Assembly (NCBI GenBank): GCA_965637545.1
Contig: OZ281495.1
Location: forward strand, 26,784,001-26,848,000
Direction of reading: 5' to 3'
DNA: 64,000 nt
Source: Phallusia mammillata
Lineage: Eukaryota
The position numbers and the translations under genes were made by a program. Of this stretch, positions 23,401-48,048 are shown in pieces (positions within the stretch are counted from its first letter, which is position 1; each line of letters begins with the position of its first letter). The notes beneath the pieces were generated by a model. That model saw only the letters and a program-made list of their open reading frames with translations, did not search any database and was not told where the DNA came from.

Positions 23401-24449
23401 CGGTTGGTGACGAGAGATCGGGCATCGAACGGCACTCCAGTTTAAAGGCTGCACTAGCCAATACGGCCGATCTCTCGTCACTAGCTGCACTGATGAGACC
23501 TTATAGGTCGAAACAGTGTGCAATGTCTGCAGCTTATTATTTATTGGCTCGATGGTTTTTAATGAAAATGAATTGCTTTAAAAACTTGATGCAAATAATG
23601 CTATTTTCAGAAAAAGTATTGTGATGTAATTGTGTTCCTATGATCTTATACCAACCAAAACAAACGCAAGTCAACTCAATGGTCCAAATTTTAAATTCAT
23701 TAGGTGGATGGAGGAATCGTCGCGAAGTTGACTCCAGGCTTTTATATTTCTTTTTTGACCACTGGATTTTCTGTTGGATTCCTGAGCGTTACAAGGCATG
23801 GACTAGACTGGGTTCGGACCCGGTTGACCCGCAGATGTACAAAGAAAACAAAGAAGGCGGTGATTTGGAAACATCCACGTCAACGACTTCTGTATTTAAA
23901 GATAAACTAAAGGAAAGCGAAATGATGGACAACGGAGTAAGTATGCGTATGGTGAGATTTTCAAATATTGCATTTGTGACAAAACTTACATTCTGATATG
24001 ATTAGGTTTTCTCAAAACTAATGGAAATGGACAAATAAGCTAAGAATAGACACACACATCAAAATATGTAATCTAATATACGATCGCAGCGAGCAAATGC
24101 ATTAAAAAACCGTATAGAAATACACCAACAGCTATGAACTAAAATGCGCCTGAGAATGCTAAATTCCATTAACTTTCTAAAAAAACAATTCATAATTTTA
24201 CGTGTGTTGTATCAGTGTATTAAAATGTTTAAAAGCTGTCCTTTTGTTGAAAACTGCAAAACAAAACCTTAGTTTAAAACGATCTTGATATTTCAGATCA
24301 CTAACATCAGTTTCATTCCGATTGATTCCACATTTTCCGAACCTGCTCCAAAGTATCCTTCCACCAGCGGCAGCGAATCCAGTTCGTCTACTCCTTCTCC
24401 GCCATATATTGAGGACGACGGCCTAGAAATGCAAGCTACTGTCATGTGA
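14482..24449 (+). CDS. Sodium:solute symporter, SLC5A8/SLC5A12/SLC5A6/NIS subfamily; exons 14482-14612, 14853-14963, 16095-16185, 16526-16643, 16720-16787, 17193-17347, 18278-18418, 18926-19055, 19623-19711, 20216-20319, 20928-21088, 21364-21504, 21858-22041, 23704-23936, 24297-24449
   Basis: Motifs [101 protein letters not shown]. Canonical splice sites with consistent phases. Orthology within the subfamily is not resolvable by eye. Confidence 0.93.
17625..17929. mobile_element. hAT-type MITE
   Basis: CAGTGGTTATCAAC / GTTGAGAACCTTTG termini; TSD TCGTAGGA/TCGTCGGA. Confidence 0.75.
19940..20117. mobile_element. hAT-type MITE (CAGTGGTGGGATT family)
   Basis: TIRs CAGTGGTGGGATT / AATCCCACCACCG; internal GAACCG repeats; TSD GGCATATC/GGCATATA. 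Confidence 0.82.
21164..21253 (+). mobile_element. Internal fragment of the tRNA-derived SINE
   Basis: Matches 62110-62197 (TTTTTCTAGCCTACG..GGTGAATGCTTGGTGACCGGCTGAT..CTGGCGTAC). Confidence 0.8.
22408..23354. mobile_element. hAT MITE (CAGGGGTTCCCAACC family) carrying nested insertions
   Basis: TIRs CAGGGGTTCCCAACC/GGTTGGGAACCCCTG; perfect TSD GTTTAGAC. An uninterrupted relative lies at 43847-44137. Confidence 0.9.
22820..23254. mobile_element. Nested hAT MITE (GCGACCC family)
   Basis: TIRs CAGGGGCCCGCAAATA/TATTTGCGGACCCCTG; perfect TSD CCATAGAG. Confidence 0.9.
23483..23534 (+). ncRNA. Type I hammerhead ribozyme, predicted cleavage after C23527
   Basis: AGCTGCA-CTGATGA-GACC(TTATA)GGTC-GAA-ACA(GTGTGCAA)TGT-C|TGCAGCT. 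Core CUGAUGA/GAAA/UH is intact; stem I 7 bp, stem II 4 bp, stem III 3 bp. Confidence 0.88.
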
Positions 24450-25355
24450 CCCAAAACAAGCACTCAATTTGAGTTCGCTTTTTTATCGAAAAGATCCTGA
24501 GACGCTTACTTTCACAACTGCTTCTTGTTTATACATTCCTGTACAGTCTATGCACCCTTCTAAGCCGTTTCTATATTGCAACACACACTGTACAGTTGCC
24601 TTCTCTGCGAAAAAAACAACAAATAGCTTAGAGAATACTCAGATGGTCTTCTCGCAAATGTTCCGCTAGTGACGATTTGAATTTGCTTTTTTTTTTAAAT
24701 AAGTCTGCTGACGACCGCTTTTTGACCCGCTTTTAGCAAAGAAACCACTTTGGAATAAAAATATTTGTCTTGAAATAAACTGCGCTGTAACGAATTGTAG
24801 AGAAGTTAAACTGCAAAGCACAAACAAGAGTAGTAAAAAAGCAGTAAAAACCTCTTTGATGTGGAATGTGTTTTTTGGACCCTTTTTTAAAAAAGAAAAA
24901 AGGCATTGGTGGTGGCCATCATTTTGGCAATTTCCCAGTCAATGTTGTTAGCTTTTCTCGTTTGAAATATGGTCAAACGGCTAAATCTTTACGAGCTGCA
25001 CACAAAACCATTTTTTTCGCAATAGCAGTTTTTCATTGCTTTAGAAAAAGGCAGTGCAAGCCGTAACATCGCGTTGAGGAAATAGTCACACTCGGCTAAA
25101 CAGGCAGTTATTTACTGGTTGTATACGTGATTGCAATGTGCAAACAGTAAACAGACTTCGCCGTTGAAATTCAGCAACAGTGTTCTGTGATAAGGTTACA
25201 GACAGATATGGTCGCACAGCTTTAAGTTGGAAACAAATTTAAAATAAGTTACTGATGATTTTAGGGCTGGTGTTCAAAAGACTAAGATTTTTACTTTACA
25301 ACAATTCTGTTTTAGAGCCCTTTTGCCAGACAGCAAACTTCAATAGGTTAAGATC

Positions 25356-26228
25356 ATGGCCCAAACGCCTCTTCGGGTGTTTGAAACTGCATCTGTCAGT
25401 GATCGGTATGCAAGAGGGCGACCTACTTACGATGATAAAATAGTTCAGCATATAGTTGGAAGTATCCGATCTGAGCTGAAGGGTGAAAAACACGAACTAA
25501 TGGTTGAAGTTGGATGTGGTAGTGGCCAAGCTACCAATGTGCTGGCTCCCTATTTTCATAATGTTCATGCAACTGACATCAGTGAAAGTCAAATTGTACA
25601 GGCTAAGGCACTTAGTAAAGTTGATCATGTAAACTACCAAGTCGGAAGTGCTGAAAAGATTTCTGCCAAAGATGCAAGTGCTGATTTACTGATAGCTGCA
25701 GAATCTGTTCATTTCTATGATTTGGAAAACTTTTTTTCGGAAGTTCGTCGAGTGTTGAAACCAGGAGGGTGCTTAGTCCTAATTGGGTATGTTCATCCAA
25801 ATGTAACGCCAACAACTAGCAACGGAGCTCAAAGGCAACTTACAGCAAGTTTATCTAATGCAGTCGAGAAAACGATCATTGACAATCTGGGCAGGACATT
25901 GGTTCCTCTTTACTACGAAATACAAAATGGTTATCCTAAGATTTTTGAAGCTATACCGGCCAAACAAAAGTCAAAAGAATATTTTCATCTCATATACGAT
26001 ACATGGAAGTTAAAGAACGTTTGGGATTTTATCGATTCAGCGATTTTGTTGAAGTGTCCAGAAGAGACGTTTCCCATTGAATCTGAACGCAAACGTACCA
26101 AGGTGCTTGATACTTTTGTACGTAATTGGAACGAGATACTTGAAAACAACGAAATATCGCCCGAAAGTGTAACATCGTATGAAGCTGATTACAAAATGAC
26201 AGTTATAACTGCCAGTAATTTTAAGTAA
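25356..26228 (+). CDS. Class I SAM-dependent small-molecule methyltransferase (Methyltransf_11; Crg1/Tmt1/DDB_G0268948-like), copy 1, 290 aa, intronless
   Basis: YARGRPTY, motif I EVGCGSGQAT, ATDISESQI, SADLLIAAESVHFYD, RVLKPGGCL. Confidence 0.92.
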   Translation: MAQTPLRVFETASVSDRYARGRPTYDDKIVQHIVGSIRSELKGEKHELMVEVGCGSGQATNVLAPYFHNVHATDISESQIVQAKALSKVDHVNYQVGSAEKISAKDASADLLIAAESVHFYDLENFFSEVRRVLKPGGCLVLIGYVHPNVTPTTSNGAQRQLTASLSNAVEKTIIDNLGRTLVPLYYEIQNGYPKIFEAIPAKQKSKEYFHLIYDTWKLKNVWDFIDSAILLKCPEETFPIESERKRTKVLDTFVRNWNEILENNEISPESVTSYEADYKMTVITASNFK

Positions 26229-26658
26229 AAGGCAACTTGTCCACTATTTGCTACCGACTTTATGTCCACAACTTTCTAATCACAGCGTATGCTAACAATT
26301 AAACAAATTGTATTTTTTGCATCGATTTTTGAGGTAGTAAGTAGTAACCATGCTAGGAAGATTTTCTGCATCAGCCGCTGAGGCAGTGCATGGGCTCAGT
26401 ATAAGAAAGTTAATTTTTACTTACGAAAGCGAACAGAGTTAAAAGCAACAATAGTTAACGGTAAACGACGGAAATATGCAAACGTAAACATTACTATGAT
26501 GCTGCATATTTAATACACATCATCAAAATTCGAACATTCATATTACCGACCAGGCTACAAGGTTTAAAATTATGCAGTATTTTCCATGTTTTGGAATGTG
26601 ATGGCCGTTAAGTAATAAAGTTATTGTATTTTTGAGCATTTAACTGCGTTTTCTAACG

Positions 26659-27161
26659 TTTTCCTGAAGTTCGTCGAGCGTTGAACCTAAGGGCTGCCTT
26701 TCCCTTATCGTTTATGTCATAAACTTTATGAGCTCGTGACACCAAGACCGGCCCTCAGAGGCAGCTAACCAAGAGCCTAACAGACGCCATAAAACAAATG
26801 CTTCATGACAACCACAGCATTAAGTTAGTAGCCACTTTGGTGAAATGCTTAATGACGATCCTCAGATTTTTTTAAGCAATATCGGCTAAACAAAAATCGA
26901 GAAAGATTCTACATCGCCTTTATGACAATTGGAAGTTAAATGAAATGGAAGATTTTTTTAATTTAATGATACTTTAAAAGAATGACTCAAACACGAAAAA
27001 CTTCGTTGGACTATTGCAACGTGAATCAAAAAACGAGTTTGATAACGAGATCGCTGATTTTTTGTTGAGATGTTTAAAAACAGTGGTTTATCACCCGATT
27101 GGGTAATTTTGTATGAAGCTGATTTAGAAATGACTGTTGTAGCTGCAATGATTTGTTGTAA
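26659..27161 (+). pseudogene. 5'-deleted, frameshifted methyltransferase fragment related to the 28964 copy
   Basis: Near-identical stretches to ~29340-29854 (GGCCCTCAGAGGCAGCTAAC, GACAACCACAGCATTAAGTTAGTAGCCACTTT), with indels and stops. Confidence 0.88.
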
Positions 27162-27406
27162 AGCTTGAAACACATAATATTACAGTATTTATCATACTAA
27201 ATCTATAAATACACATTTTACATTTATTGTTTAAACCAGTTTTTTGAAGTTTGTAACCATAACATTGAGAGCATCTTGTGGACCCAGAATTGAAAGACGG
27301 GACAAGATTAAGCCGTCTTGATTTGGTTCTGGTGCTAAATCTGTCATTTTTGCGCAAGGTAGTAACTTTACATAATTTAAAAGTTGTTGCATACAACCGT
27401 CTATTC

Positions 27407-28054
27407 CAGCGGTTCCCAAACTTTTTTCATATTTTTCCAAAACGGTCCCTTTGCCATTATTTCGAGGGCTCGCGGTCCTTAAGCCTAAATGTGTATTACA
27501 TAAATACGAAAGTTGATTGCACTATTTTAGCTAGTTATGCAAAATTTGCGCATAACAATCATCCAAAGACAGCATGTGACATCACAAACAGGACAAAAAA
27601 CATTACGATTGTGCGCGAACATTTGCATTTTTGATAGTTGTCATTTGATAAAGGCCATTGTTTAGCAATAGAGACAGTCGATTCTTAATTCTACTTTGAT
27701 TTAAACTTATTTAGTGGCACACACTGACGCCAAATAAGATTATAGAATTACTTCAACCGCTTCGCGGTCCCCCCAAAATTGCCTCACGGACCCCTAAAGC
27801 AGTGGTCGGCAACCGCCGGTCCGCGAGAAGTTTCTTACCGGGCCGTATACGTTTTCATGCCTAAGGTTTTGAAACATTTTGCCAGTGCTTCCCGGGGATT
27901 ATAAACTAATTTATGCGTTTTTATTCCCCAAAATATTGTAGTTTTTTGAAGACCGGTCCGCGATAAAATTTCAGTTTTAAAAACGGTCCGCAGTACAAAA
28001 AAGGTTGCCGACCCCTGCCCTAAAGGACCGCGGACCCCAGTTTGGAAACCGCTG
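27407..28054. mobile_element. hAT MITE (CAGCGGTTCCCAAAC family) with nested MITE 27800-28017
   Basis: Outer TSD GTCTATTC. Inner TIRs CAGTGGTCGGCAACC/GGTTGCCGACCCCTG with TSD CCCTAAAG. Confidence 0.9.
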
Positions 28055-28174
28055 GTCTATTCAATAGAGCAGCATATCGACTTATCTGTCATATTGATTT
28101 ATGGGATTAACATAATTCAATTTATTTAGAAACCGTTGTGCTTTCTCCTATATTCGCCGATGAAGCATTAAAAG

Positions 28175-28653
28175 TAGAGATGTACCGAATATTCGGTTTG
28201 CCGAATTTATTCGGCTGAATCGACCACTTTTGCAAAGATTCGGTTTCGGCCGAATAATTTGTTACCGAATCTTTTACGAACACATATTTGGCCGAAACCG
28301 AATCTTTTACGAAAACATATTTAAAGCGTTAAACGTGTCGTTTCTGCATAGTACCAACGAAAATCGCGCCAATCATTATCTTTTTTAACACATTATCGTT
28401 TTTACCACTGCAGACAAATAATCAGTAATTCATTGTCGGGTTGGCAATCATGCTTGAGGAAAATAGGGACGAAACACAACCATTCTGCACTAATTGCCTG
28501 GTAGATAAACTTATATTTTCATGTCAAACGCGTAGCGTACGACTTCGCGTGACGTCCTAAATGATTCGGTTGATTCGGCCGAATGTATTCGGCAAAACCA
28601 CCGAATATTCGGTTTCGGCCGAATCGAAATTTCGCCGATTCGGTACAACACTA
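28175..28653. mobile_element. hAT-type MITE (CCGAATATTCGG family)
   Basis: TIRs TAGAGATGTACCGAAT / ATTCGGTACAACACTA; TSD ATTAAAAG/ATTAAAAT. Confidence 0.85.
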
Positions 28654-28963
28654 ATTAAAATGGTTAATGATGTGGCATTTAACGGCAACAAAATTCAGGA
28701 AATGACGTCAATGTTTGGGGTTCGGCACATTATGTTTGAATGTGACAAACCGATTCGTAAGGTCTAGCGCTTGTATCAAGCTATAATACCATTAATGATT
28801 GACAATTGTCAAAATCGCCAGAAGTTCATCTGATGCTGAAGCGAAATTGGTGCGAAGATTTATTATCAACTGTTTGGTTAGTGAGCACAGAATTGGTGTA
28901 ACACAAATACTTGCCAAATTATAGGCAGGTTTTGTCAAGTAAAAATCATATGGACAGAACATA

Positions 28964-29854
28964 ATGAATAAAAGAGCTTTCCGGTTGTTTGAAGCTGAAC
29001 ATATCAGTAACGTATATGCAAGAAGCCGCCCTACTTACAACCAAGAAATAGCTCAACATATACTTGAATGTATACAAACCAAGGCGAAGGATGGAAAGCA
29101 CGAACTGATGATAGAAGTTGGATGCGGTAGTGGCCAAGCTACCGATGTGCTGGCTCCTTATTTTCATAATGTTCATGCAACTGACATCAGTGAAAGTCAG
29201 ATTACACAGGCAAAAGCCTTCAATAAATTTAATCATATAAACTACCAAGTTGGATGCGCCGAAGAAATTAATGCTTGTAGTGCCAGTGCTGATTTACTTG
29301 TAGCTGCAGAAGCTATACATTGGTTCGACTTGGAGAAGTTTTTTGCTGAAGCTCGTCGAGTGTTGAAACCAGGAGGATGTCTTGCCCTGATCGTTTATGT
29401 TCATCCGAAATTAACTCCCAACACCAGTACAGGCCCTCAGAGGCAGCTAACTAAAAGGCTAACAGACGTCATGAAACAAATGCTCTATGACAACCACAGC
29501 ATTAAGTTAGTAGCCACTTTTCGTGAAATGCTTAATGGCTACCCTAAGATTTTTGAAGCAATTCCGGCTAAACAAAAACGAAGAAAGATTTTTCATCGCA
29601 TTTATGACCACTGGAAGATAAAAGACATCAAAGACTTTGTTAATTCAATGATACTTCAAAAGAATAACTTAAACACAAAACACACCGATGGACTATTGCA
29701 GCGTGAAACACAAAACGAGTATGCTAACGAGATCTCTGGTTTAGTTGATAATATGAATGAGATACTTAAAATAGGAGGCATATCGCCCGATTGCGTAATA
29801 TCGTTTGAAGCTGATTTCGAAATGACTGTTGTAACTGCAAGTGAATTTTTGTAA
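28964..29854 (+). CDS. SAM-dependent methyltransferase, intact copy 2, 296 aa, intronless
   Basis: YARSRPTY, EVGCGSGQAT, AAEAIHWFD, RVLKPGGCL. Confidence 0.92.
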   Translation: MNKRAFRLFEAEHISNVYARSRPTYNQEIAQHILECIQTKAKDGKHELMIEVGCGSGQATDVLAPYFHNVHATDISESQITQAKAFNKFNHINYQVGCAEEINACSASADLLVAAEAIHWFDLEKFFAEARRVLKPGGCLALIVYVHPKLTPNTSTGPQRQLTKRLTDVMKQMLYDNHSIKLVATFREMLNGYPKIFEAIPAKQKRRKIFHRIYDHWKIKDIKDFVNSMILQKNNLNTKHTDGLLQRETQNEYANEISGLVDNMNEILKIGGISPDCVISFEADFEMTVVTASEFL

Positions 29855-30444
29855 AGCTTGAACACATAATAGTACAATATATATCACATTAATTCTATTT
29901 AAATACACATTTTACTTTTGTTTTTTGAACACTGTTTTATGAAAGTTCATAGCATTAAAATCAACAGAACTAATGGATAGGTCGAGCATTTAATAGCTGT
30001 TTCCGTCATAAACTGAAAATAATTACCCGTCTAGATTCGGTTTTAGATTCGGTTGTTGCATACAACCATCTATCTATTCAATAGAGCTCCATGTGGTCTT
30101 TCTGCCAGATTGGTTTATGGGATTAACATAGTTTATTTCATTTAGAAATCGTTTTGCTCCCTTATATATTCGCCGATACAGCAGCATTGATAGGGTTACC
30201 GCTGTAACCATTATAATTATAATGTCCCCAATCTTCAGGAAATGTCGTCATTGTTTGGGATTGGGCACAATGTTTTTGAACGTGATCAATCGATTCGTTA
30301 AGCTTCGGGCTTGCATAAAAAAATTGAACAGTTATTTGGTTCGAGACGAAATTTCACCGGGTTTACAGAATCTCGGAGCCAAAGTCAATGATAAAATTAA
30401 TTAACTCAATGATAACATAACAAATAATTGCTGTTGGACTATAG

Positions 30445-30864
30445 CAGCGGTTCCCAAACTGGGGTCCGCGGTCCTTTAGGGGTCCGTGAGGCAATTTTGG
30501 GGGGCCTGCGAAGCGGTTGAAGTAATTCTATAATCTTATTTGGCGTCAGTGTGTGCCACTAAATAAGTTTAAATCAAAGTAGAATTGAGAATCGACTGTC
30601 TCCATTGCTAAACAATGGCCTTTATTGAATGACAACCATCAAAAATGCAACTGTTCGCGCACAATCGTAATGTTTTTGTCCTGTTTGTGATGTCATATGC
30701 TGTCTTTGGATCATTGTTATGTGTAGTTTTGCATAACTAGCTAAAATCCTGCAATCAACTTTCGTTTTTATGAAATACACATTCAGGCTTAAGGACCGCG
30801 AGTCCTCGAAATAATGGCAAAGGGACCGTTTTGAAAAAAATATGAAAAAGTTTGGAAACCACTG
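30445..30864. mobile_element. hAT MITE, same family as 27407, opposite orientation, no nested insert
   Basis: Reverse-complement match to the 27407 element; perfect TSD GACTATAG. Confidence 0.9.
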
Positions 30865-31781
30865 GACTATAGTGACAAGCAAATGTAAAAGTGCACATAC
30901 AAAACTTATTAGGTGTTTGTTTTCGTTTTTACAGTATTAATGTCGTATTCTGATCGTATTCACATTTTCCGCACCCAAAAATAACTGACATTTTACCTGG
31001 TCATTGTAAGTCTACCTTGGTTTTCGTAAAACTTGCAATTAAAAATAGGTGGAATAAAGTATCCGAAAATTTAAGTCGAGAGAGTGAGTATTAGGTTTTA
31101 AGGTTGGTTAATGCAGTTCCACAAGTGCGGAAATAAGATCAACAACAGTTACGATGAATTCTATTGCGGGCCAAAATTTGCCAGAACAAAATCAGACCAT
31201 CTGGGCTATAACAGATTATGAAAGTCAGTTTGTGAACAAAAACTGACAACTTCCACAAATTAACTGCCTGTTTGTGCATAGTAATGATATCAATTTTTTT
31301 TGTTAATAATGATAGGGTTGTTTTGTGATTATTTATACCATAATAATCGTTTTCTAGTTTTGCGTCAGTCGACTTAGTGAAAAATGAACAGGCATTGATT
31401 CCATGTTGAAAAGCAACTTCAAAAAATCACACCTGAACAACATGTTTCCAATACCATTAAAAAATTAACTTCAGTACACATTCCAAGGTAATAAAAAACA
31501 CCAGATTGTGAAAGAAGTTGGATCTGGACATATGTTGAGAATTTGTTTAATCGAATGCAAGCAATAAACGTAGGATTTCGAGTTCTATAGAGAAGAGAAA
31601 TAGGAAAACCGCAAATTAAAGTTTTTTTACAGATGATTCTGAATATCATCAGACCTTGCAATGGTTGCCGCCTTCTCATTGCACCGGCTGTGTTTCCATT
31701 TAGTGAAGCGGATGTGAACTGTGCAGCAGCTAAAATGGTCAGACAGACATAAATGTGGGAGGGGCCAAAAATTGTGTAGTC

Positions 31782-32177
31782 CAGTGGTTCTCAAACTTTT
31801 TTTGTTGCGACACCTCTGGAAAAGTTTTCTGGACTTGCGACGCACCAGCAAAAAATAATGAGAAATTTAAAACCAAGTTTAATGCCCGCCAAGCGTCGCC
31901 CCAGACACGCGCCTATCACGCACTTGCTGCTTGTACTGTTTGGTCTCGACGTACATTAACGGGCAGTCGCTTTTAATCAAAAACGTTTGACGTAAGTTTA
32001 CGTCAATCCGCACTCTACGCAAAACGTCTTTGGACGTAGGCCAGATATAAGTCAACCGCACTGAAAGTGTTAACCTCATTTGTATGAGATAAACTGAGTT
32101 CAGCCACGAACTGCGACGCCCTTGGAAAATTGAAACGACGCACCAGGGCGTCGCGACGCACAGTTTAAAAACTACTG
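31782..32177. mobile_element. hAT MITE (GCGACGC family)
   Basis: CAGTGGTTCTCAAAC..TTTAAAAACTACTG; perfect TSD GTGTAGTC. Confidence 0.88.
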
Positions 32178-32917
32178 GTGTAGTCCAATACCGTTTGCGT
32201 AAGATGTGTTTTTACCAATCAAGTGGTTTTCCAAACTAGGCTTCCAAAAGCTTTACTTACTGGTTTTACATCTGCATAAAGACGGACTCATGTGGACTTT
32301 AACTTACAACTCGGTGGCAACAGTTGTTATATGCAATGTGTATTTTATTGACAATTTAGTAATGATGTGATACAAAATCACACTGAATTAAAGTTTCTCA
32401 ATATACATCATTAGACATTTAATTAGGTTTTATCACCAGCTTTTAGCAACGAAACCACATCAAAAAAATTCGCTTTTTCGATATGTATCTGTGTAATATG
32501 TAACCATCACCATTTTTAAGCAATGTTGCCAGAAAAAAAAAAAAATGCTTTTTTCGTTTAGGACACGTCCAGACGGAAAAGCAGTACTCAAATAACAAAT
32601 ATTCCAGAACGTGAATAAAAAAGGCAAAGCGAGTCGTGACACTACATCAGGAAATTGGTCACGCATTTGGCTAAGCGAGCAATCCACTCGCTGTTTTCAT
32701 TAACGTTTTATTTGCGCTGCAAACAGGAACCAGCCTTTGACCGTGAAAATTCTGCAGCAGAGGCTCATACTTTAGGTTAGAATGGAATATTAATGCAAAG
32801 TTTCAGTGTTTGAGGCTGGTGTTCATTGGGCTACGAAATTGACTGTGATTATAACAAATTTATCCTATACTTTACAGATTTAGCTTCTGAAAGAACAAAC
32901 TGGAATAGGTTAAAATT

Positions 32918-33790
32918 ATGGAACAAGCCTCGTTTCGTGTGTTTGAAACGAATCTTGTCAGCGATCTTTATGCAAAGGGAAGACCTACTTACGATGACAA
33001 AATAGTAAAGCACATTATTGGAAGTATCCTAACCAAGATAAAGGGTGAAAAACACGAATTAATGGTAGAAGTCGCGTGTGGAAGTGGCCAAGCTACCAAT
33101 GTGCTGGCACCGTATTTTCATAATGTTTTTGCAACTGACGTAAGCGAAAGTCAAATTGCACTGGCAAAGGCCGGTAATCAATTTGATCACATAAAGTACC
33201 AAGTTGGAAGTGCTGAAGAAATTGATGTCAAGGATGCCAGTGCTGATTTACTGGTAGCTGCTGAATCAGTTCAATTCTTTGATTTGGACAAGTTTTTTTC
33301 GGAAGTTCGTCGAGTGTTGAAACCAGGAGGATGTTTTGCCGTGATTGGGTATGTTCATCCAAATGTAACGCCAATAACTAGCAATGGAGTCCAAAGGCAG
33401 CTTACAGCAAGTTTAACTAATGCTGTCAAAAATACGATTATTGATAATATCGGCAAGAAGTTAGTTCCCATTTACTACGAAGTACAAAACGGTTATCCTA
33501 AGATTTTTGAAGCTATGCCGGCTAAACAAAAATTAAAAGAATATTTTCATTGCATCTACGATACATGGAAGTTGAAAAACGTTTGTGATTTTGTCAACTC
33601 AGCGATTCTGTTGAAGTGTCCAGATGAGACGTTTCCCATTGACTCTGAAAACAAACGTGTTGAGGTGCTTAATGCTTTCGTTTCTAATGTGAGCCAGATG
33701 CTTGAAAGTAGCGAAATATCACCCGACAGCGTAACATCGTATGAAGCTGATTACAAAATGACAGTTATAACTGCCAGTGAATTTGAGTAA
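32918..33790 (+). CDS. SAM-dependent methyltransferase, intact copy 3, 290 aa (closest to 25356 copy)
   Basis: YAKGRPTY, EVACGSGQAT, AAESVQFFD, RVLKPGGCF. 3' flank is homologous to that of the 25356 copy. Confidence 0.92.
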   Translation: MEQASFRVFETNLVSDLYAKGRPTYDDKIVKHIIGSILTKIKGEKHELMVEVACGSGQATNVLAPYFHNVFATDVSESQIALAKAGNQFDHIKYQVGSAEEIDVKDASADLLVAAESVQFFDLDKFFSEVRRVLKPGGCFAVIGYVHPNVTPITSNGVQRQLTASLTNAVKNTIIDNIGKKLVPIYYEVQNGYPKIFEAMPAKQKLKEYFHCIYDTWKLKNVCDFVNSAILLKCPDETFPIDSENKRVEVLNAFVSNVSQMLESSEISPDSVTSYEADYKMTVITASEFE

Positions 33791-34637
33791 AGTGCAACTT
33801 TCCACATATTTATGATCACAGCACATACAAACAATAAAACATTTTTCTGTTGATTTTTAAGGTAGTTGCAGTAACTCATGCTGGCACGATTTTCTGCATC
33901 AGCCGCTGTGGGTTCAGTATCCAATGTCACTTCCGAAATGCGTTTGGAGTTAATACCAACAGTACTTAATTGCAAACGACTGGACTGTTGAAACATAAAA
34001 TTACAGCATATTTAATACACATCATCGAAATATGAACAGTCATAATACCGACAAGGCTACAAGGATTAAAATTATGCAGAGTTTTCCTTGTTTTGGAATG
34101 TGATGGCGATTGAGAAATTGTCTTTCATTTCTGAGCATTTAACTGCGTTTTCTTACATTAGACATGCTCTGTGTTTCCGTGTCGTGATTCCTCGATAGGT
34201 GATAAGCAACCGAATTTAATAGGTTTCGTTCCGTTAAAACAAAAAATACTAGGTGGCCATACAATGACGTTGACAATTACTTTGCCAAATAATTTAGGTC
34301 TTAACAGGTTTGTTACAGACAGACTGCAGATTCAGAAATATTGACCCTTATTTGAGACATCGTACTGCATATCAAGTTTGATTGTTAGTTGCACATACTA
34401 AAGAAGCTACTAATATTTGCGTTTTGCTTTGTGTGTTATGATTAGGGCGAATAGCACCATGCGCACATAAGCAAAACTACCAGAAGTCGATCTGGTATTC
34501 AAGTAAAATTGGTGATGAGATTACAGTTAGAGTTGTTAGTAGATGACCACAAACATGTCAGGTTACAATACTAGTTTTGGGAAATAGAAGTCCAAATTTC
34601 ATCGAATTTGTCAGTTTTTTTGTCAGGTGAAACCTAT

Positions 34638-35694
34638 ATAAATCAAGCACAATTCCGGTTATTTTAAGTGAACACTATGTTAATGAACATTATGCAAGAT
34701 GCCGGCCTACATGCACCCAAGAAATAGCTCAACATATAATTGAAAGTATCCGGTGCAAAACAGGAAAAAAAAACGGAAAACACGTCCTTATGGCAGAAGT
34801 TGGATGTGGTAGTGGCCAAGCTACCAATGTGCTGGCTCCATATTTTCATCAAGCTCATGCAACTGATATCAGTGAACGCCAAAATGCACAGGCAAAAACA
34901 CTAAGTGAATTTGATCATGTAAACTATAGTCACTTGGTATACCAAGTGGGAAAGGCTGAAAAGATTTCTGCAACGGATTCCATTGCTGATTTACTAATAG
35001 CTGCATAAGCTGTTCATTTCTTTGATTATGACAAGTTTTTTTTCTGAGGTTCGTTGAGTGTTAAAACCAGAAGGATGCTTTGCCCTGATTGGGTATGTTT
35101 ACCCGAATATAACTCCTAAAACCAACGACATCTTTCAAAGAAGTCTATCATCAAGTTTTAGAACCTCGATTGAAAAAGTAATCATCGACAACGCCAGAGA
35201 GGAGATGATTCGGATTTATCGCGAAATCCAAAACCACTATCCTCAGATTTTCAAAGCCATATCAGCTAGCTGAAACAGTTTTGTTATTAAACGAATCTCC
35301 CGCAGACAATAAAATGTATAAAAGAAAGATTCTTGCTTCTGATCAGTATAGTATTGGACTGTTTCATAAAAACAGATCTGTTTTTATGAAACAGTCCAAT
35401 ACCATATCAGCTAAAAAGAAATCGAGGAAGATTTATCATCAAATCTACGACTGGAAACTACAGGACGTCGTTGATGTACTTAACTCAATGATTTTCCTGA
35501 AAAGTGATAACAGTACTCAGAGTGCTGATGGATTGGCACTCCGAAAATCTAAAAACGAATGTGCAAAGGTGATTGATACTTTTGTTCATAATGTAAGAGA
35601 GATCCTTAAAAGCAACGGGACGTCGCTTGAACACGTAAAATCGTACGAAGCAGATTTCGAAATGATTGTGTTAACCGCCAATGACTTTGAGTAA
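34638..35694 (+). pseudogene. Methyltransferase pseudogene (lost ATG, stops, frameshifts, 133-bp insertion at 35269-35401)
   Basis: Fragments EVGCGSGQATNVLAPYF, VLKPEGCFALIGYV and SYEADFEMIVLTANDFE are interrupted by in-frame TAA/TGA. Confidence 0.9.
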
Positions 35695-36778
35695 ACCGTA
35701 AAAGATTTGAAACCAAAATACATGTTACATCTACATTTAGAAAACTCTGGTCTGCATCTTACTATTACAATACATTTGTGGTAAAACCTGTCGTTTTCTT
35801 AAAAAAAGGTCATTATGAAGTTAAAGGCATCCGACAATATTTGGGCTTGCATTTAACAAGTTAAAAAATGCAGGCAACTGAACATGTTGGGTAAATCGTT
35901 TTGCTACATGATTTTCAAAATACGTGTATAATGTGATCGGAGATTTTGTTGGGCAGTAATGTTTTTGAAACAGTGGACATTGAAACTATCCGAAACCGCT
36001 CCTGAATCGTATAAAATGCAACTTGTGTTCTGACTGTATTTGTTTTTCGCATGTAACAAAAAAAGCGGACATACCATGACTCTGCAAACCCCATTTACTG
36101 TTGACAAATAGAGTTGAAATTAACTCAAATCTTGACCACACAATAAAACAACACTAAAAACCAAAAGTTCGATGATTGAACTGGCCGGTTTTAATGAAAT
36201 TTTATTGTAGAGTTGATCTGCTGTATAGTGGAAACTAGAAAGAAGGGGTTATTCGTCAACAGAATCTACAAGCCGTGACGGTGCTTGGTACGGACGGTCA
36301 TACCTGATTAAACACGCCCAAATCCCACACTGCGTTCAAACTTTTTTCACATAGAAAACAAAGCAATATAGGGTCAACCAACATCGTCACAAGATGTGCG
36401 TTACAAAAAACAATAAATTTCTAACAGAGGAATGATTCGTCTGTCGATAAGCAAACCACCCTGCATCAATTAATTCGTTCGTTCGTTCGTGTTTCGTAGT
36501 TAGTTGTTGCTTAGTTTATGTACACTTATTATTACACATAGCAGTCATTAACAAGCACATGGTGTTAAAAATGCAATAAATTTAATAGTGCATATAGTGT
36601 GCTGTTTCAACAACAGAAGAAAGAAGATCAAAGGCCTTTAGTTAACATTTTCGTGACGGGAAATAAATTAATACAACAAGAAATACGATTGGATGCTTGT
36701 ATAGAAAGTTGGAATTTGACATGAAAATTCAAAATAAAAAATGACTGAACTATTTGATGTTTATGCGTGTTGACGCTT

Positions 36779-37110
36779 TTACATAAAACCAGTGGCAGTA
36801 ATCACAAACATCTCAAAATCTGCTTCATACGCAACTACACAATCGGATGCTATACAGCTGTTTTTAAGCATCCCGTTTACATTACTTACAGAATCATCAA
36901 TCACATTTGCACATTCGTTTTCAGAGTTACGTAATAAACTATCCTCAACAACCTTTGTAATCACGTCACGTTTGTGTAATATCATTAAGTTAAGAAAATC
37001 TTTCATGTCCTATTGATTTTCTGCTTAGCCGGTATTGCGTCAAAAAATCTGAGGATAGCCCTGTTATATTTGGCGATAAATAGAACCCACTTCGTGCTGT
37101 GGTTGTCGGT
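36779..37110 (-). pseudogene. Inverted 3' fragment of a methyltransferase related to the 40067 copy
   Basis: Minus-strand translation ..SENECANVIDDSVSNVNGMLKNS..CVVAYEADFEMFVITAT is nearly identical to 40751-40957. Confidence 0.88.
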
Positions 37111-38809
37111 GCAAATGATTTAGTCGACTATTTCCCACACTATTTGTCCATATTGAGGTTTGGTTTAGCCAAATATTATCTAGATATGACACAGATTTTA
37201 CTATTTTGTTAAGTTTGCTGCATAGATTTTTCGATGGGGAGCCACAGGGCTTACAGGGGTTACTTATGGGGGTACGAAGTTCGAAAGTTATTTCGGGGGG
37301 TCAAGGTGCATGAAAGGCTGAGAGTCACAACTAAGAAATATACTTTGAATGAGATTGTCAAATTACCGAAATTTGGTAAATTCCAACTTGGTTCATGTTT
37401 TCTTTTTAATTTATCTTGATCTGGGAAGTAATTTACGTTAGGAACTAAGTGTCTAAGTATGATTTCTTGTCATAACAAAACCTCTTCCCAACCCTGACAG
37501 CCCCAACCGTTGAGATTTTTACACAATTATTGACAAATGTTCTTTGCGCCACCCATCGCCATTCAGAAATCGTTGTCTGATGTAAGTTTCTTACTTTAGT
37601 TGATTTGTTTCTTGTGAATAACGGTAACGGTCTGGTTTTGCTGTCGGTTTCAGGCACACACCAAATACTTGGCATTAAGCGTTGTATTTCCAAATACGGT
37701 TTAGAATTTTGATCGGTTGACCCCGATCATTTTTTATACAACAGTTAACCTAGTTTGTAATATTTTACCTATTGTTTGTGAACCTAGTTACAAGGTTGAA
37801 AATAAAAATGGTTCCTAGTTCGTTTTCACCTGAAATGACAATTTTTTTGAAACCCGACACTGAAAACAAATGTCGGAATTTAAAAAAAAAAGATCACAGT
37901 CACTTCAACTACGTATATAACAAATTAGTAAAATCTAGAACTATCTGAATGAATGTTTGTCACTGCTTCGCAAAAACGGGCCGATTTCGACGCTGGAAAC
38001 GCAATTTTCTGAAAAGAAAACTGCGCAAATGAAAACCGGAATGAGTCGCAGTGACACGGACATTCGTTCCACAGAGCACATAACATGGAAGTAGCCTACC
38101 TACTTGACAATCAAACTGTCAACTTTATACTACTTTAAAACCAGTGGCAAAATTTATATTTGTTTCTCATTGTGTGTTAACTTTAACTCCATGTGTGTTA
38201 AAACTAATGTGTTTAGTTCGCCACTTTTGTACTGGGCATTTCGCATCGGCAGATTTTATTACGTCACAGTTGATCAATGGCGTAACTGAGGTTAACTAGA
38301 TTGTACAGGTGATCGTTGCTGTTTACAACAAAGATGTTTGAATTGCTACAAAAAAACTCGGGGAACCGCTGCGGAACCCTTATAGACTTCACGGAACCCT
38401 GGTGAGTGTTGCAGGACCCTAGGATTCCGCGGAACCCTGGTTGAAGATCCCTGATCCATGATATCGAAGCTGCACAGATAAACAACAGCCGTCGCAGAAT
38501 AGGACCAAAATATTTAAAGGTAGATCAGTGACATGGGTTTGTAAATAAAACCACAACTTGTGACTAATTTATTTCTAAACGAAAAGACCACATTAATTTT
38601 TCAAGCATTTGCAACGCGATTTTTATGTTCATTAATAAACTGACATAATGTACAGAAAAAGAAGGTTATGGGGGTGTTACGAAAATGGACCTCAAGCTTT
38701 TTTAGACGGATTCACTGACATAAGGTTTAAGACAACGTACGGTACGCATGAACAGTACGGTACTGTGGTATTGTACTTGACAGTTTTTGACATTTGGTAC
38801 GGTATATAC

Positions 38810-39129
38810 CAGGGGTGGGCAACCTACGGCCCGCGGGCCGGATGCAGCCCGCGAGCAGCTTTTGAGCGGCCCGCGACTGGTATTTTAGTTTATTTGGCCG
38901 GACAGGATGTGTGTTAAATCCCATTTTTGTACGAAAGAGTTGTTACATTATACGTTAATAGGTATTAGTCTATAACTAAGAAGAGGCATTGTTACGTACA
39001 AAGACAAAATCATTGTGTATTTGACTTTGCCTGGCACTGCTATGTTATTGCATGACCATCGTTGCGGCCCGCCGACACAATATTTCGCTACGTTTTGGCC
39101 CGCACATGCAAAAAGGTTGCCCACCTTTG
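38810..39129. mobile_element. hAT MITE (CAGGGGTGGGCAACC, CGGCCCG family) inside an older GTACGGTAC-rich element (~38721-39201)
   Basis: TIRs CAGGGGTGGGCAACC/GGTTGCCCACCTTTG; TSD GTATATAC/GTAGATAC. Confidence 0.85.
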
Positions 39130-40066
39130 GTAGATACGGTTGTACGGTACGCTCTTAGCAACAAGGTACGTCGTACGTATCCTACCGCACTGCCATCCTT
39201 GGTTGACATACAACCTGATTTTGCTGACGTTTTATTGGTTTGGGTTTGAAACCGAAAATCTCGCTCAAACGGACGTTTTTGTTAGAGCTGAACACTGTTA
39301 TTATGGTATAAAATACAAAGTACCTCGCAGACATCGAAGCTCGTACAGTTTGTAAAGACCAGTTAACTGAACACTATCAGACTTAAAGCTGCTGTGATCG
39401 AGTGATTTGTTTTGGAATTGTAAACGACTGTCAGTCACACAATTTGCAAACAACCTAAAGGTCTGTTTAACTGCAATAAAAAAGTATGTATAAGGCAGCA
39501 AAATTTTGTTCAGCTAGCAGTATGAGACATTTACGATTGGATATCGTACTTAAGCAAGTGAATTGGTTTCACCAAGTATACACCAAAAAAGCTCCGAAGA
39601 TTCGAAATTGACTAATTTGTTTCCGGTCATGTTTAAGCGTCACAAAAGCAAGTCGTGCTGCAAATGCGTGTTCCATCGTTCAAAGTTACGGTGTTTTGAT
39701 AAATAATCACTCAGGACGTACGTTTCGAACAGAAAACGATTTGTTCACCCTGCCTAAAGTTAAGGTCTGGGTTTGTCAGTTTTCGCTTTGCTGGGGAAAA
39801 ACATACAGAAAAAACAAACTGTGTATCGCTTCCATTGCAACTTTCTGTGCAGAATTTTTGTAGAAAAAAGATACTAGGAATAAATTTGTTACATAACTAA
39901 CTTTTAAATTGTTTATATCAAAAAGGTCCATGTGGACGTTAACAGGCCCCTTTTCATTGAAATGTTTGTACATAAACGGTTAATTAAAGCTTGTAGTTTT
40001 GTTTTTAGCGTCGAGTTCGATATAGAATTAGTTATTTGCAAGAGAAAACAACTCATAAGCAAAAAA

Positions 40067-40957
40067 ATGAGCCAAACATCATTTAAGTTGTTCGAAACAG
40101 CATCCATCAGCGATCTTTATGCAAGGGGACGTCCAACTTACGAAGACAAAATAGCTCAATATATAGTTGGAAGTATCAAATCCAATATGTTGATGGAAAA
40201 CACGAACTGATGATAGAAGTTGGATGTGGTAGTGGTCAAGCTACCAATGTGTTGGCGCCTTACTTTCATAATGTTTTGGCTACTGACACCAGTGAAAGTC
40301 AAATTGCACAGGCAAAAACATTGAGTAAATTTGATCATATAAAGTACAAAGTGGGACGTGCTGAAGAAATTGATGCCAATGATTTGAGTGCTGATTTACT
40401 TATAGCTGCAGAATCTCTTCATTGGTTCGATGTGGAAAAGTTTTATGGTGAAGTTCTTCGAGTGTTGAAACCAGGAGGCTGTCTTGTCGTGATTGGATAT
40501 GTTCGTCCACAAATAACTCCTAAAACCAACACTGGCCATCAAAAGCATCTCACTTCGAGATTATCAGCTTCCAATGAAAAAGTGATCTTTGACAACACTA
40601 GCGAGAAACTGATTCAGTGTTATCGCCAATTAAAAAAACCACTATCCCAACATTTTTAAGGCAATACCGACTAAACAGAAATCAAGGGAGGTTTTTCATC
40701 ACATCTGCGACGATTGGGAAATACAGGACATCAAGGATTTTCTTAACTCAATGATATTAGAAAAAAATGATGTGGTTACAAAAGGTACTGAGGGAAGCGT
40801 ATTACGTAAATCAGAAAACGAATGTGCAAATGTAATTGATGATTTCGTGAGTAATGTAAACGAGATGCTTGAAAACAGCGGTATATCACCCGATTGTGTA
40901 GTTGCGTATGAAGCAGATTTTGAAATGTTTGTGATTACTGCCACTGATTTAATGTAA
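40067..40957 (+). pseudogene. Full-length methyltransferase copy with two single-base frameshifts (~40190, ~40635)
   Basis: MSQTSFKLFE..YARGRPTY, then a frame change, then IEVGCGSGQAT..AESLHWFD..RVLKPGG, then a frame change in an A-run, then an intact C-terminus. Confidence 0.85.
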
Positions 40958-42846
40958 AAGCGGCTTCTTTCATTTTGGAATCACATGTTAATTGCCATTT
41001 TAAACAAATATTCAATCATATTGTTCATTGTATTAATTTTTCCGCGTCAAGCATTTGAAAATGTTAACTATTAGCCCTGTTTTTTCCTATTAAAACTGCA
41101 TGGTTCTCGATATTATTTTCTGATGGATAGTACACTACAAAAATATTATACATGCTTCACCTTTTACGCCATATGTGCTTGTTTACTGTTAATACTTGCT
41201 GTGTGTAAAAATCAGTGTACATAAACTAAGTAAAAACTGACCTTAACATATGAACAGATTAGTTTATGCATATTTGGTACCGGCAATTTCAACTGAATGT
41301 ACAAACCAACTTTAGCAGGCAGTATATGTATAACATTGTAAAGCAACAAAATTTATGGCTTCTGTGCATTTATTTGTGACAAAATTTTAAACGATGACTA
41401 TTTTAACATCTTTGAATTTGTGTTGCAAGTCAACTTTCGTTTCCGCTCTATTATACACTAATGACAAGATTTCCACAAATTTTCGAAAACAGCCCATATG
41501 TAACTTATGAAGAAGTAATAAATTCATTTAATTTAGGAGACAAATTCAACGCTAACGTCCACGCATTCGTTTGTACCTAAATCCAGCAACAAAACCAGCC
41601 GGTATAACCTTTATTTACGTCTAAAAAACACACACGTCAAACCACTGAAATTATACACGTTTTTAAACAGGTGTGGCTGCCTAAAAAAAACACGATCACG
41701 GCTTGTAGGTATTGCTGACGAATGTTACCTCTTTCTTCCACCATAGTAACAGTGATCGCATTTAAACATTGATATCAACTCTGCAATACACGATCGTAAC
41801 TATATGTTTAATTTTGCTTGGTGCAACAGTGTCTCTGCCTTGAGCATTGGCCATTCGCTGATCGATATTAAGGCACATCGACGTCCAAAGCGTTGATGCT
41901 CTGGAATGGCTTTCATTAACTATATTTGTACACATTTAGGTTCGTTTATATTTAAATACATATAGCAATGCACGACTTTAGGACTACGATTTTTATTACT
42001 CTGCCCCGCATTCACCTAACGTTTTCAGTTAAACGTTTGAGATTTTGTCAGTTAAAAATGTATCGATATACGAGCGCCTTATACTGCAAACAAAACAGCC
42101 GCTTTAAGTATCAGTTGTCGGCCTACTTGAGTACCGAAATCGGTATCGCCAAAACCATATCGACCTGTCTCTAGATTATACCGTTATAATGTCATGGGCT
42201 GTTGCCGAAAAGTTTGAACAATAAAGCATGTCGATTTTTAGGTCAAAAGTAAGATATGGTAAAAAGCAAATTTAGACAAAGGGATTAAACCGAAAATCGA
42301 TTAATGTGTTAGTGCAATTCAAACTGTTTGCATGCTTTACCATATGCTATCCCTGTTTTTGCATCACAATCAGCCCAGCTCACTAAAAACATAAATGACT
42401 TCTTACTTCAGGTGCAACATGACTTACAACGTTGCTCCCAACAATGCCAAACAACCTGACATATGTTGGACACAACCAAAAAATACAAACAATAGTTCAA
42501 CAGTTTCGATCCAAATGGGTTGATCAAGTAAATATTTGTTCAACGTCTGAAAGGTGTCGACTGTTACAATGGCCTTGATAGGTTCAAGCAACATTGTCAG
42601 CAAAATCTTCTGGGCCGTAACGGCGGTTTGAACTGTCAGTCATACATGAATAACCACGCGTTAATCAAACCTATGCCCCAAACTTTTCACACTGCGAAAA
42701 ACGAAAAGGTGTGAACTAGTATCGGCTAGCGTATTTTGGGCAAAAACGCTTTTTTCCTTGTTTTTGAACGTTAAGTTCAGTTGAATTGCAGCGGAAGGGA
42801 GCTATTGGTTGTTATATAGTACTATTTGAATATTTTGGCAGCAAGA

Positions 42847-43752
42847 ATGGACCAAACATCACTACGGTTGTTTGAAAACCCAACTTTCAGTGACATATAC
42901 GCGAAAGGACGTCCTACTTACGAAAACAAAATAGCTCAGCATATAGTTGGAAAGATCCGATCTGACCTTAAGGGTAAAAAACACGAACTAATGGTGGAAG
43001 TTGCATGTGGCAGTGGACAAGCTACTAATGTGCTGGCTCCCTTTTTTCTGAACGTTCTTGCTTCTGACATCAGTGAAAGTCAAATTGCACAGGCAAAAAC
43101 ACTGTGTCAATTTGATCATATAAACTACCAAGTCGGAAGTGCTGAAAAAATTGATGCCAAAGATGCGAGTGCTGATTTACTGGTAGTTGCGGAAGCTATG
43201 CATTGGTTTCAAATCGACAGTTTTTTCTCCGAAGCACAAAGAGTGTTGAAGCCAGATGGCTGCCTTGCAGTTATTGGGTATGATGTCCCAAAAATAACTC
43301 CTAAAACCAATGCTGGCCTTCAAAGGCAGCTAACATCAAGTTTCCGTTACCACATGGAAAAGACAATCAACAACAACACTAGTGACAAATTGGTTCAAAT
43401 TTTTCGCGAAATAAAAGACAACTATCCTCAGACTTTTGAAGGTATACCGACAAAGCAAAAATCAAAAGAGATTTTTCATCAAATCTACGACAATTGGGAG
43501 CTAAAGGACATAACTGATGTTATGAACTCGATGATGTTGCAAAAGAACTATGCTATCACAAAAGGTCATGGAATTCTGCCACGTGATACTAAAGACGACT
43601 GCGCAAATGTGATTGATGTTTTTGTTTCCGATGTGAGTGAAATGCTTAAAGAGAGTGGAATATCGCCCGAATGCGTAATTTCGTATGAAGCAGAATTTGA
43701 AATGACCGTTATAACTGCCAGCGATTTTTTTTTAGAAAATACAAACTTATAG
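42847..43752 (+). CDS. SAM-dependent methyltransferase, intact copy 4, 301 aa from ATG 42847
   Basis: MDQTSLRLFE aligns with paralog starts; EVACGSGQAT, AEAMHWF, RVLKPDGCL. Confidence 0.92.
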   Translation: MDQTSLRLFENPTFSDIYAKGRPTYENKIAQHIVGKIRSDLKGKKHELMVEVACGSGQATNVLAPFFLNVLASDISESQIAQAKTLCQFDHINYQVGSAEKIDAKDASADLLVVAEAMHWFQIDSFFSEAQRVLKPDGCLAVIGYDVPKITPKTNAGLQRQLTSSFRYHMEKTINNNTSDKLVQIFREIKDNYPQTFEGIPTKQKSKEIFHQIYDNWELKDITDVMNSMMLQKNYAITKGHGILPRDTKDDCANVIDVFVSDVSEMLKESGISPECVISYEAEFEMTVITASDFFLENTNL

Positions 43753-43846
43753 ATGGGTGAAAAAAAGTTTCTACACCCATAAATGCATGAAAGTTTGTCG
43801 TACACGGATCGCTTTTTAGCTCGTCTTTGCTATGTAACGATTAAAG

Positions 43847-44137
43847 CAGGGGTTCCCAACCTGTGGTACGCGTACCACTAGTGGTTCGCGAAGGTTTTTC
43901 AGGTGGTACGCGAGTAGCTTCCGTTTTTTTCACAAAAGCCTGGTTTCGCAACTTTATAATTGTTTACAGTAAACAAAAATCTCATTCAATTTAATTGTGG
44001 TACTTTAGTGTTATTTAGTAGGCCATTCTTTTGAATGAATATGATTTGATCAAATTAGTTGTTCTGCAAGAAGTGGTACGCGTGACAGTGCAGTGCGTCC
44101 AAGTGGTACGAGATCGTAAAAAGGTTGGGAACCCCTG
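43847..44137. mobile_element. hAT MITE (same family as 22408)
   Basis: TIRs CAGGGGTTCCCAACC; perfect TSD GATTAAAG. Confidence 0.9.
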
Positions 44138-44622
44138 GATTAAAGGGTTTAATGCTTCGATTTAAAACTCGCTTTACATTTGTTTGACGTATTTGGCTCA
44201 ATTGCGCACAGACAACGTCTCCCAAATACGTGTATTTGTGATTACTGACTAACGTGTGTGTAACTCGTGTGTACAAGCAAAATCGTTTAATAAAACACAA
44301 ACCAATAATTTTCCGTTCCGAGTTTAGAAGACAAAATAGACCTAAAACACGATTCGCCCATTTTGTAATTGAGGTTTAAACAGCTCAATTGGTATTGCAA
44401 TATGGTACATTGCAGAGAAAACTGTTTAAGAAATTTCAAAAGTTCACAATGCCTATATGAGTATGTCAGTGTTTGCTTTGTAGAAAACATTTAAATAATA
44501 AAAACAAAACGTGGATTACTGGGAATTCTGAACATAACTCTACATCAACACTTGTACAAACCTTCGATTAGCCGCTTTACTTTTGGATCAAGCATGTAAA
44601 CTAATCCAAGCACATTGTAGGT

Positions 44623-47773: not shown

Positions 47774-48048
47774 CTACAGACGTTCTATCTGGCATAAAGT
47801 GATTAGGTCGTCATAATAGTTTCATAAAATCGGATACAGATAATGACGTGAGGTCAGGGAAGTATAGCCAGCTTAAAATGATTGTTTATTGATGTTGTGT
47901 ATGATTTATGTGCAACTCAAACCGTCTTTAATTTTTTCTACTGACTAACAATATCCTGTTTAATATTTTTTCTAAAAGGTGTTTAAATCGTCCTGCATTA
48001 GGATTTAATTATTAGTCGTGCTGTAGAACTGTTAGTCTTTAAAAAGTA

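Follow-up and report, generated by a model that had tools for sequence, protein, structure and literature searches.

Within a 64,000-nucleotide window of the Phallusia mammillata genome (contig OZ281495.1, positions 26,784,001 to 26,848,000), positions 25356-43752 carry a tandem array of eight single-exon methyltransferase copies of the Pfam family Methyltransf_11. Four copies are intact and under purifying selection, two are full-length but disabled, and two are fragments. With a probability of roughly 0.6, we read the array as a DDB_G0268948/Tmt1-like cluster, the products of which likely methylate small carboxylic acids with S-adenosylmethionine (SAM), each subtype likely acting on a different acceptor. 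The array is a birth-and-death cluster of the ordinary kind, part of an enzyme expansion in ascidians and one of many loci of a known family.

Copies, constraint and decay

The window has a base composition of 34-42% GC and is animal DNA. A tblastn search of the whole window with the four intact proteins recovered eight copies and nothing further above noise, which was defined by the best of 100 shuffled queries (31.6 bits) and which the two fragments exceed with 74-137 bits. The initial annotation had listed, in ~18 kb, four copies as intact, two as full-length but disabled and two as fragmentary, and this inventory was recovered in full, position by position. No extra copies were found in the 10 kb searched on either side of the window.

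The intact copies, named here by their first positions, all lie on the forward strand and encode 290-301 residues. The subtype A copies at 25356-26228 and 32918-33790 (290 residues each) carry the motifs ESVHF and ESVQF, respectively, after strand 4; the subtype B copy at 28964-29854 (296 residues) carries EAIHW, and the copy at 42847-43752 (301 residues), the model of which matches yeast Tmt1, carries EAMHW. All four pass the Pfam model PF08241 (71-77 bits against a gathering cut-off of 21.2; E 1e-19 to 1e-21). The proteins are 57-59% identical in pairs, except for 25356 and 32918 (76%), and the DNA of the copies differs by 16-40%. Hydropathy is at most 1.05 in every 19-residue window, with no hydrophobic segment, and the intact copies presumably encode soluble enzymes.

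The intact copies are under purifying selection: codon models reject a nonsynonymous-to-silent rate ratio (omega) of 1 (twice the log-likelihood difference 100.9, p about 1e-22), so their evolution is not neutral, and three intact lineages have been kept to a silent divergence (dS) of 0.7-1.0 with omega about 0.3. Beside them lie four dead copies. The full-length pseudogene at 34638-35694 (forward) has ATA at the start codon, frameshifts near 34672 and 35032, and three in-frame stops, including those at 35006 and 35055. It also contains a 145-nt insert (35257-35401) with a 12-nt flanking direct repeat and a ~50-nt internal palindrome; judged by read depth, this insert is repeated elsewhere in the genome. 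The second full-length pseudogene, at 40067-40957 (forward), carries a 1-nt deletion near 40186 and a 1-nt insertion near 40632. Because it is otherwise stop-free in the ancestral frame and its omega against the intact copies is 0.30-0.36, this copy is likely a young pseudogene. Assembly error as the cause of its frameshifts was excluded, since gap-free contigs from other studies span both sites. The contigs 39100-40319 and 40291-40919 of run X3 carry both frameshifts, and the contig 39100-40312 of run X5 carries the first, on a haplotype with seven other letters; this check used four DNA-like runs, with X1 and X2 uncounted as a possible assembly source.

The two fragments derive from these copies. 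The 3'-half fragment at 26659-27162 (forward), a duplicate of 28964 including its 3' flank, has several frameshifts and four stops, and its omega of 0.77 against 28964, at a dS of 0.25, fits neutral decay along one branch. The inverted 3' fragment at about 36779-37160 (reverse) is a DNA-level duplicate of the 40067 copy, again including the 3' flank; the likeness runs on to about 36251, with a best block (I1) of 238 nt at 87% and further blocks I8, I9 and I12. Similarly, 25356 and 32918 were duplicated as a 1.3-kb unit (blastn 25334-26660 against 32896-34159, 79%) with ~430 nt of 3' flank in common. Since the 3' flanks were co-duplicated in all three cases, the copies arose by DNA-level duplication. 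Divergent constrained copies standing beside four dead ones, of which one is visibly decaying, bear out the birth-and-death mode proposed earlier.

Two observations concern sample X5. A 1277-base contig (record 32) matches 42230-43093 exactly for 864 bases and then departs inside the 42847 gene, which may represent an insertion or a structural polymorphism of that copy. The 28964 copy of this sample carries, within 29023-29125, R20S and E51D, both touching otherwise conserved parts of the N-half.

No run recorded as RNA contains the stretch, and four of the 12 runs guessed to be RNA were examined, X8 having been chosen for sharing words with 39900-43900. Contigs of X8 and X9, from two studies and at a depth of 3-8, cover most of 25356 (two of the four runs), and 43071-43364 of 42847 is covered in X8 (one of four). 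In none of the four does a contig fall in the unique intergenic bins of 32608-37045 and 40216-42751. This is weak evidence that 25356 and 42847 are transcribed, at whatever level and in whatever tissue. The copies 28964 and 32918 are uncovered in these four runs, which is no evidence of silence. Expression of the intact copies, the absence of which the initial annotation had named as refuting its reading, is thereby weakly indicated for one copy and part of another.

Fold, acceptor site and likely chemistry

An AlphaFold2 model of 42847, made from a 32-sequence alignment (mean predicted local distance difference test score 89), was compared with 48161 chains. The top match is yeast Tmt1 (PDB 3g5t; Z 25.1, root-mean-square deviation 2.7 Å, 258 aligned residues, 19% identity), followed by HvrF (9e72, Z 21.8), 4hg2 (Z 21.1) and TTHA0223 (Z 20.7). 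Foldseek ranks 4hg2 and 3g5t first (TM 0.70); the family profile likewise ranks these two first, and matches Tmt1 at E 2.5e-24 over positions 10-241. The predicted model adopts the whole-chain fold of 3G5T, with a Rossmann core, an N-terminal lid and a helical cap. The kinship to Tmt1 and Crg1 suggested earlier is thus upheld, for Crg1 by way of Tmt1.

Residues Y18, R22, P23, E51, G55, G57, D74 and E100 are kept in all four intact copies, as is the glycine-rich motif I, EV(G/A)CGSG. From the class I architecture, we take the glycine-rich motif I to be SAM-binding and the acidic D74 to contact the SAM ribose. Three other positions, 21, 119 and 120, presumably line the acceptor site, as in class I enzymes generally, and these vary. 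Residue 21 is tyrosine or phenylalanine in 51 of the 62 eukaryote-like homologues from outside this genome, and glycine or serine in all four window copies. Trp120 is present in 55 of the 62 and in all nine bacterial homologues, and is replaced by phenylalanine in both subtype A copies. His119, present in 60 of the 62, is glutamine in 32918.

According to the published account (PMC3197675), Tmt1 makes methyl esters of trans-aconitate and isopropylmalate, and Crg1 methylates cantharidin, an instance of stress-responsive small-molecule methylation; the two are close homologues, yet their substrates differ. By analogy, the intact enzymes of the array would form methyl esters on inhibitory or foreign small acids and mask them, as Tmt1 and Crg1 do. 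The substitutions G/S21, H119Q and W120F, together with those of the cap helices, may give the subtypes different acceptors. Chemical defence, detoxification and natural-product tailoring, suggested in the initial annotation, are putative roles.

Several points weigh against this carboxyl-methylating reading. Identity to Tmt1 is just 18-19%, and the fold neighbours include S- and N-methyltransferases (the S-methyltransferase TmtA, Z 18.7; OxaG, Z 17.8). Because Crg1 and Tmt1 differ in substrate despite their close homology, the chemistry cannot be read from the fold alone. The transcription signal, moreover, comes from shallow runs that were guessed to be RNA. An acceptor other than a carboxylate—a thiol, an amine, a phenol or a macromolecule—is an alternative that we regard as unlikely. 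The class I fold is common to S-, N- and O-methyltransferases, and no curated NCBIfam family exceeds its cut-off (best BioC, 53-67 bits against 185; Tam, 27-32 against 297). However, among the full-length structure and profile matches of known activity, the best is Tmt1, a carboxyl methyltransferase, and RNA and protein methyltransferases reach Z 15.4 at most with the 42847 model.

Family expansion in ascidians and the neighbourhood of the array

In sequence searches and in the tree, the array proteins group with the eukaryotic family "putative methyltransferase DDB_G0268948", a name borne by proteins of Phallusia, Ciona, Styela, a brittle star and a copepod (for example, Phallusia CAB3264259.1, Ciona XP_009860793.2, Styela XP_039262316 and Amphiura XP_072028617.1). 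The top Atlas clusters for an own-genome paralogue (P0150) bear the same name. Proteins recorded as Phallusia mammillata are 100% identical to two own-genome paralogues and 98% identical to a third, in agreement with this ascidian as the host. The search of the own genome gave 65 matches from 66 scored candidates, and the matched regions contain 36 single-exon open reading frames of at least 270 residues at 16 loci on 8 contigs; both counts are lower bounds, as short exons of a spliced member could escape. One frame (C1:10382513) aligns from residue 67 only and is probably frameshifted, which leaves 35 frames at 15 loci. A repeat search with the most distant paralogue found no additional locus in the genome. 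Several of the other clusters include broken copies too. The initial annotation had put the array forward as the window's best candidate for an undescribed system, a description that does not fit one of 16 loci of a family already named by databases in ascidians and other animals.

Four metagenome loci match over 145-227 residues without stops or splicing, so unspliced relatives exist elsewhere. The single copy on contig C7 (C7:16700344) nests within the C6 cluster (C6:18286609-18305674) at a dS of ~0.2, a recent jump between contigs. A 3763-residue centipede protein annotated as SRCR-domain-containing (P0132) has three matches to this methyltransferase and is possibly a fused gene model.

We built a FastTree phylogeny from 107 proteins, of which 36 come from this genome, 62 are other eukaryote-like sequences and nine, serving as root, are bacterial; three records identical or nearly identical to own genes were excluded. 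In this tree, the window copies group together (support 1.0) inside a larger clade (1.0) that unites every own paralogue with the Ciona and Styela proteins, and large ascidian-restricted subclades are present. The amphibian, echinoderm and copepod members fall outside the ascidian clade. The window clade is without a close relative in the collections searched, with best outside matches of at most 42% identity. In the literature, no assigned function or substrate was found for an animal DDB_G0268948 member, and chicken LOC424014 appears solely in expression tables. No account of this ascidian expansion was found in a search that left supplements and subscription papers, the orthogroup tables of which may list it, outside its scope; in the Ascidiella genome paper (PMC13746493), the word "methyltransferase" is absent from the main text.

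Around the array lie a multi-exon isocitrate dehydrogenase gene (4580-7850, reverse; Pfam Iso_dh on one exon) and, directly upstream, a multi-exon SLC5 sodium/solute symporter gene (14464-23996, forward; exon match 17184-17312). Downstream are a G-protein gamma subunit gene (48043-49011, forward), exons that presumably resemble VMP1 (50787-53550, reverse; no Pfam match on the one exon tested) and MRPS30/PDCD9 exons (57067-61547, forward). An exon-like frame with an ShK-like domain lies at 2086-2439 (forward, E 2e-5). Two 289-nt copies, 100% identical and 1.5 kb apart, lie at 10630-10918 and 12121-12409. High-copy short interspersed repeats resembling miniature inverted-repeat transposable elements, recognised by DNA contig depth and with no strand assigned, separate the copies at 27400-28660, with further short repeats near 30440-30870, 31780-32180, 38810-39130 and 43850-44140; their contig depth is 1e3-1e5 against ~1e2 over genes. 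The segments 27402-27799 and 30474-30869 form an inverted repeat pair (93%).

This neighbourhood bears on the possibility that the enzymes serve in tailoring secondary metabolites made by the animal itself, such as defence compounds, pigments or blood-cell and tunic compounds, and that the array is a biosynthetic locus. The ascidian-restricted subclades and the restriction of the likely-pocket changes to the window clade would suit such a role, as would the fold neighbour HvrF, an O-methyltransferase required for a bacterial natural product according to a preprint (bioRxiv 2022.11.22.517531). However, the identified neighbours named above include no other biosynthetic gene, and no pathway partner was identified among the 11 exon fragments checked in the window. 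The SLC5 linkage does not recur either: all 79 SLC5-family matches stand more than 100 kb from the other methyltransferase loci, the nearest being ~180 kb away, and there is therefore no sign of a pathway cluster. With the family spread over so many loci and turning over rapidly, we consider a biosynthetic locus doubtful.

Less likely still, the copies would be redundant dosage duplicates for one substrate, their differences reflecting drift under moderate constraint. Such redundancy would agree with the equal omega of the two halves (0.31 in the N-half and 0.32 in the C-half; codon models, four intact copies), with the death of half of the copies and with the absence of positive selection in the window (M2a against M1a, p 0.45, of low power with four sequences only). 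Among four clusters tested for positive selection, only C6 is nominally significant (p 0.044, uncorrected). The long retention of three intact lineages under constraint argues against redundancy, as do the replacements of Trp120 in both subtype A copies and of His119 in 32918, at otherwise conserved sites.

Finally, recent horizontal transfer from bacteria or an assembly artefact is very improbable: all copies are single-exon and bacterial homologues reach 31-33% identity over ~75% of the length, but the copies nest among Ciona, Styela and own-genome paralogues, apart from the nine bacterial proteins, they diverge from one another by the 16-40% given above, and the region is tiled by contigs from two further studies that differ from it little. 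The tree, a check that had been proposed with the array, thus gives no sign of bacterial origin; being rooted on bacteria, it speaks against recent transfer only, not to a deep origin.

Subtypes, probable exchange of the 5' half and known systems

The initial annotation had described at least three subtypes with a conserved Rossmann N-half and a divergent cap in the C-half. The groups 25356/32918 and 28964/26659 both have a bootstrap of 100, and the value for the pair 40067/36779 is 98-99. A third subtype of four members, as had been proposed (40067/36779/42847/34638), finds little support: it reaches 54% in the C-half tree, is unrecovered in the whole-gene tree, and reaches 52/32 in a second analysis. 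The contrast between the halves is present in five of the six intact pairs (62-70% amino acid identity in the N-half against 49-54% in the C-half) and absent from the 25356/32918 pair (76% against 77%). Equating the N-half with the Rossmann core and the C-half with the cap is too simple, as conserved sheet strands (67-76% identity between copies of different subtypes) lie in the C-half of the model, and some N-half residues that likely line the pocket are variable; specificity is therefore not confined to the C-terminal cap.

As far as testable, the greater C-half divergence is not adaptive cap evolution, because omega is equal in the two halves, no positive selection was detected at the low power of four sequences, and silent divergence differs as well. 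The per-half test therefore gives no backing to diversifying selection on the cap. At silent sites, the C-half of the window array is more divergent than the N-half. On the stem of subtype A, dS rises from 0.06 for the N-half to 0.61 for the C-half (p 4.6e-10 when free branches are compared with scaled ones), and the N-half tree is a star, whereas the C-half tree has one 100/100 branch. At nt 197-234, 19 consecutive polymorphic sites agree between 25356 and 28964 (p 0.0003, the best value among 15 pairs), although this run lies on a conserved motif. Across the family, by the NG86 method, the silent difference is larger in the C-half in 24 of 26 non-independent pairs, and the codon model gives the same signal in three of six other clusters. 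Such half-specific silent branch lengths suggest that the 5' half underwent gene conversion or recombination, which would make the SAM-binding half look younger than the cap half.

The support for this exchange is mixed. For the window as a whole, dS in the C-half is 1.4 times that in the N-half (p 0.057), and the approximately unbiased test leaves the subtype A pair unrejected in the N-half (p 0.43). A strict test on four-fold sites is significant in the expected direction in two of six window pairs and reversed in one, and the pooling of 12 disjoint genome-wide pairs gives no significant difference at such sites (0.259 against 0.292, p 0.26). On balance, gene conversion of the 5' half in this array appears probable. 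Family-wide conversion is not claimed, since the strict test shows the pattern in just 7 of 12 disjoint pairs. CpG methylation as the source of the faster silent change in the 3' half was ruled out, as the C-half is not depleted of CpG (observed/expected 0.97-1.26). In three other clusters (C1:28754607-28775997, C5:18020690-18028524 and C2:6235521-6245941), the codon model puts silent divergence in the C-half at 2.7-3.5 times the N-half value, a stronger contrast than in the window.

A wider proposal, which we advance tentatively and think unlikely, is that ascidians run a host-encoded small-molecule methylation system of ~35 intronless Tmt1-like enzymes, either as the carboxyl-methylating equivalent of the classic conjugation families or as the missing tailoring enzymes for the animals' own metabolites. 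Neighbouring genes would swap the SAM-binding half by conversion and keep distinct caps, so that new enzymes would be mosaics. Taken by itself, the array shows a textbook pattern, and only a demonstrated substrate or role would make it surprising to specialists. The DDB_G0268948 family is present in many animals, and ~35 short, single-exon, predicted soluble genes in one laboratory ascidian offer an easy cloning and assay panel. Such a panel would render the chemistry of the family directly testable, and might give methyltransferases useful as biocatalysts.

How does the array compare with known systems? Tmt1 shares with it motifs of the YxxxRPxY, VGCG and ECAHWF types, but stands as a single gene in yeast, and its tricarboxylic and dicarboxylic substrates are known. 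Crg1, the close homologue of Tmt1, is linked to the array through Tmt1. HvrF, a Pantoea O-methyltransferase and the second-best fold match (PDB 9E72), has a small acidic ligand in its structure, but is bacterial, belongs to a biosynthetic cluster and is 15% identical to the array model. Members of the DDB_G0268948 family are of the same length class and share the Y-x-x-x-R-P start, motif I and the A-x-x-x-H-W-F motif; the array differs from them by glycine or serine at position 21 and by the changed H-W motif of subtype A. Detoxification enzymes (CYP, GST, UGT and sulfotransferases) form clusters of tandem duplicates with pseudogenes, purifying selection and partial gene conversion. The array belongs to another enzyme class, and is likewise tandem and accompanied by pseudogenes, with purifying selection on its intact copies and probable partial gene conversion.

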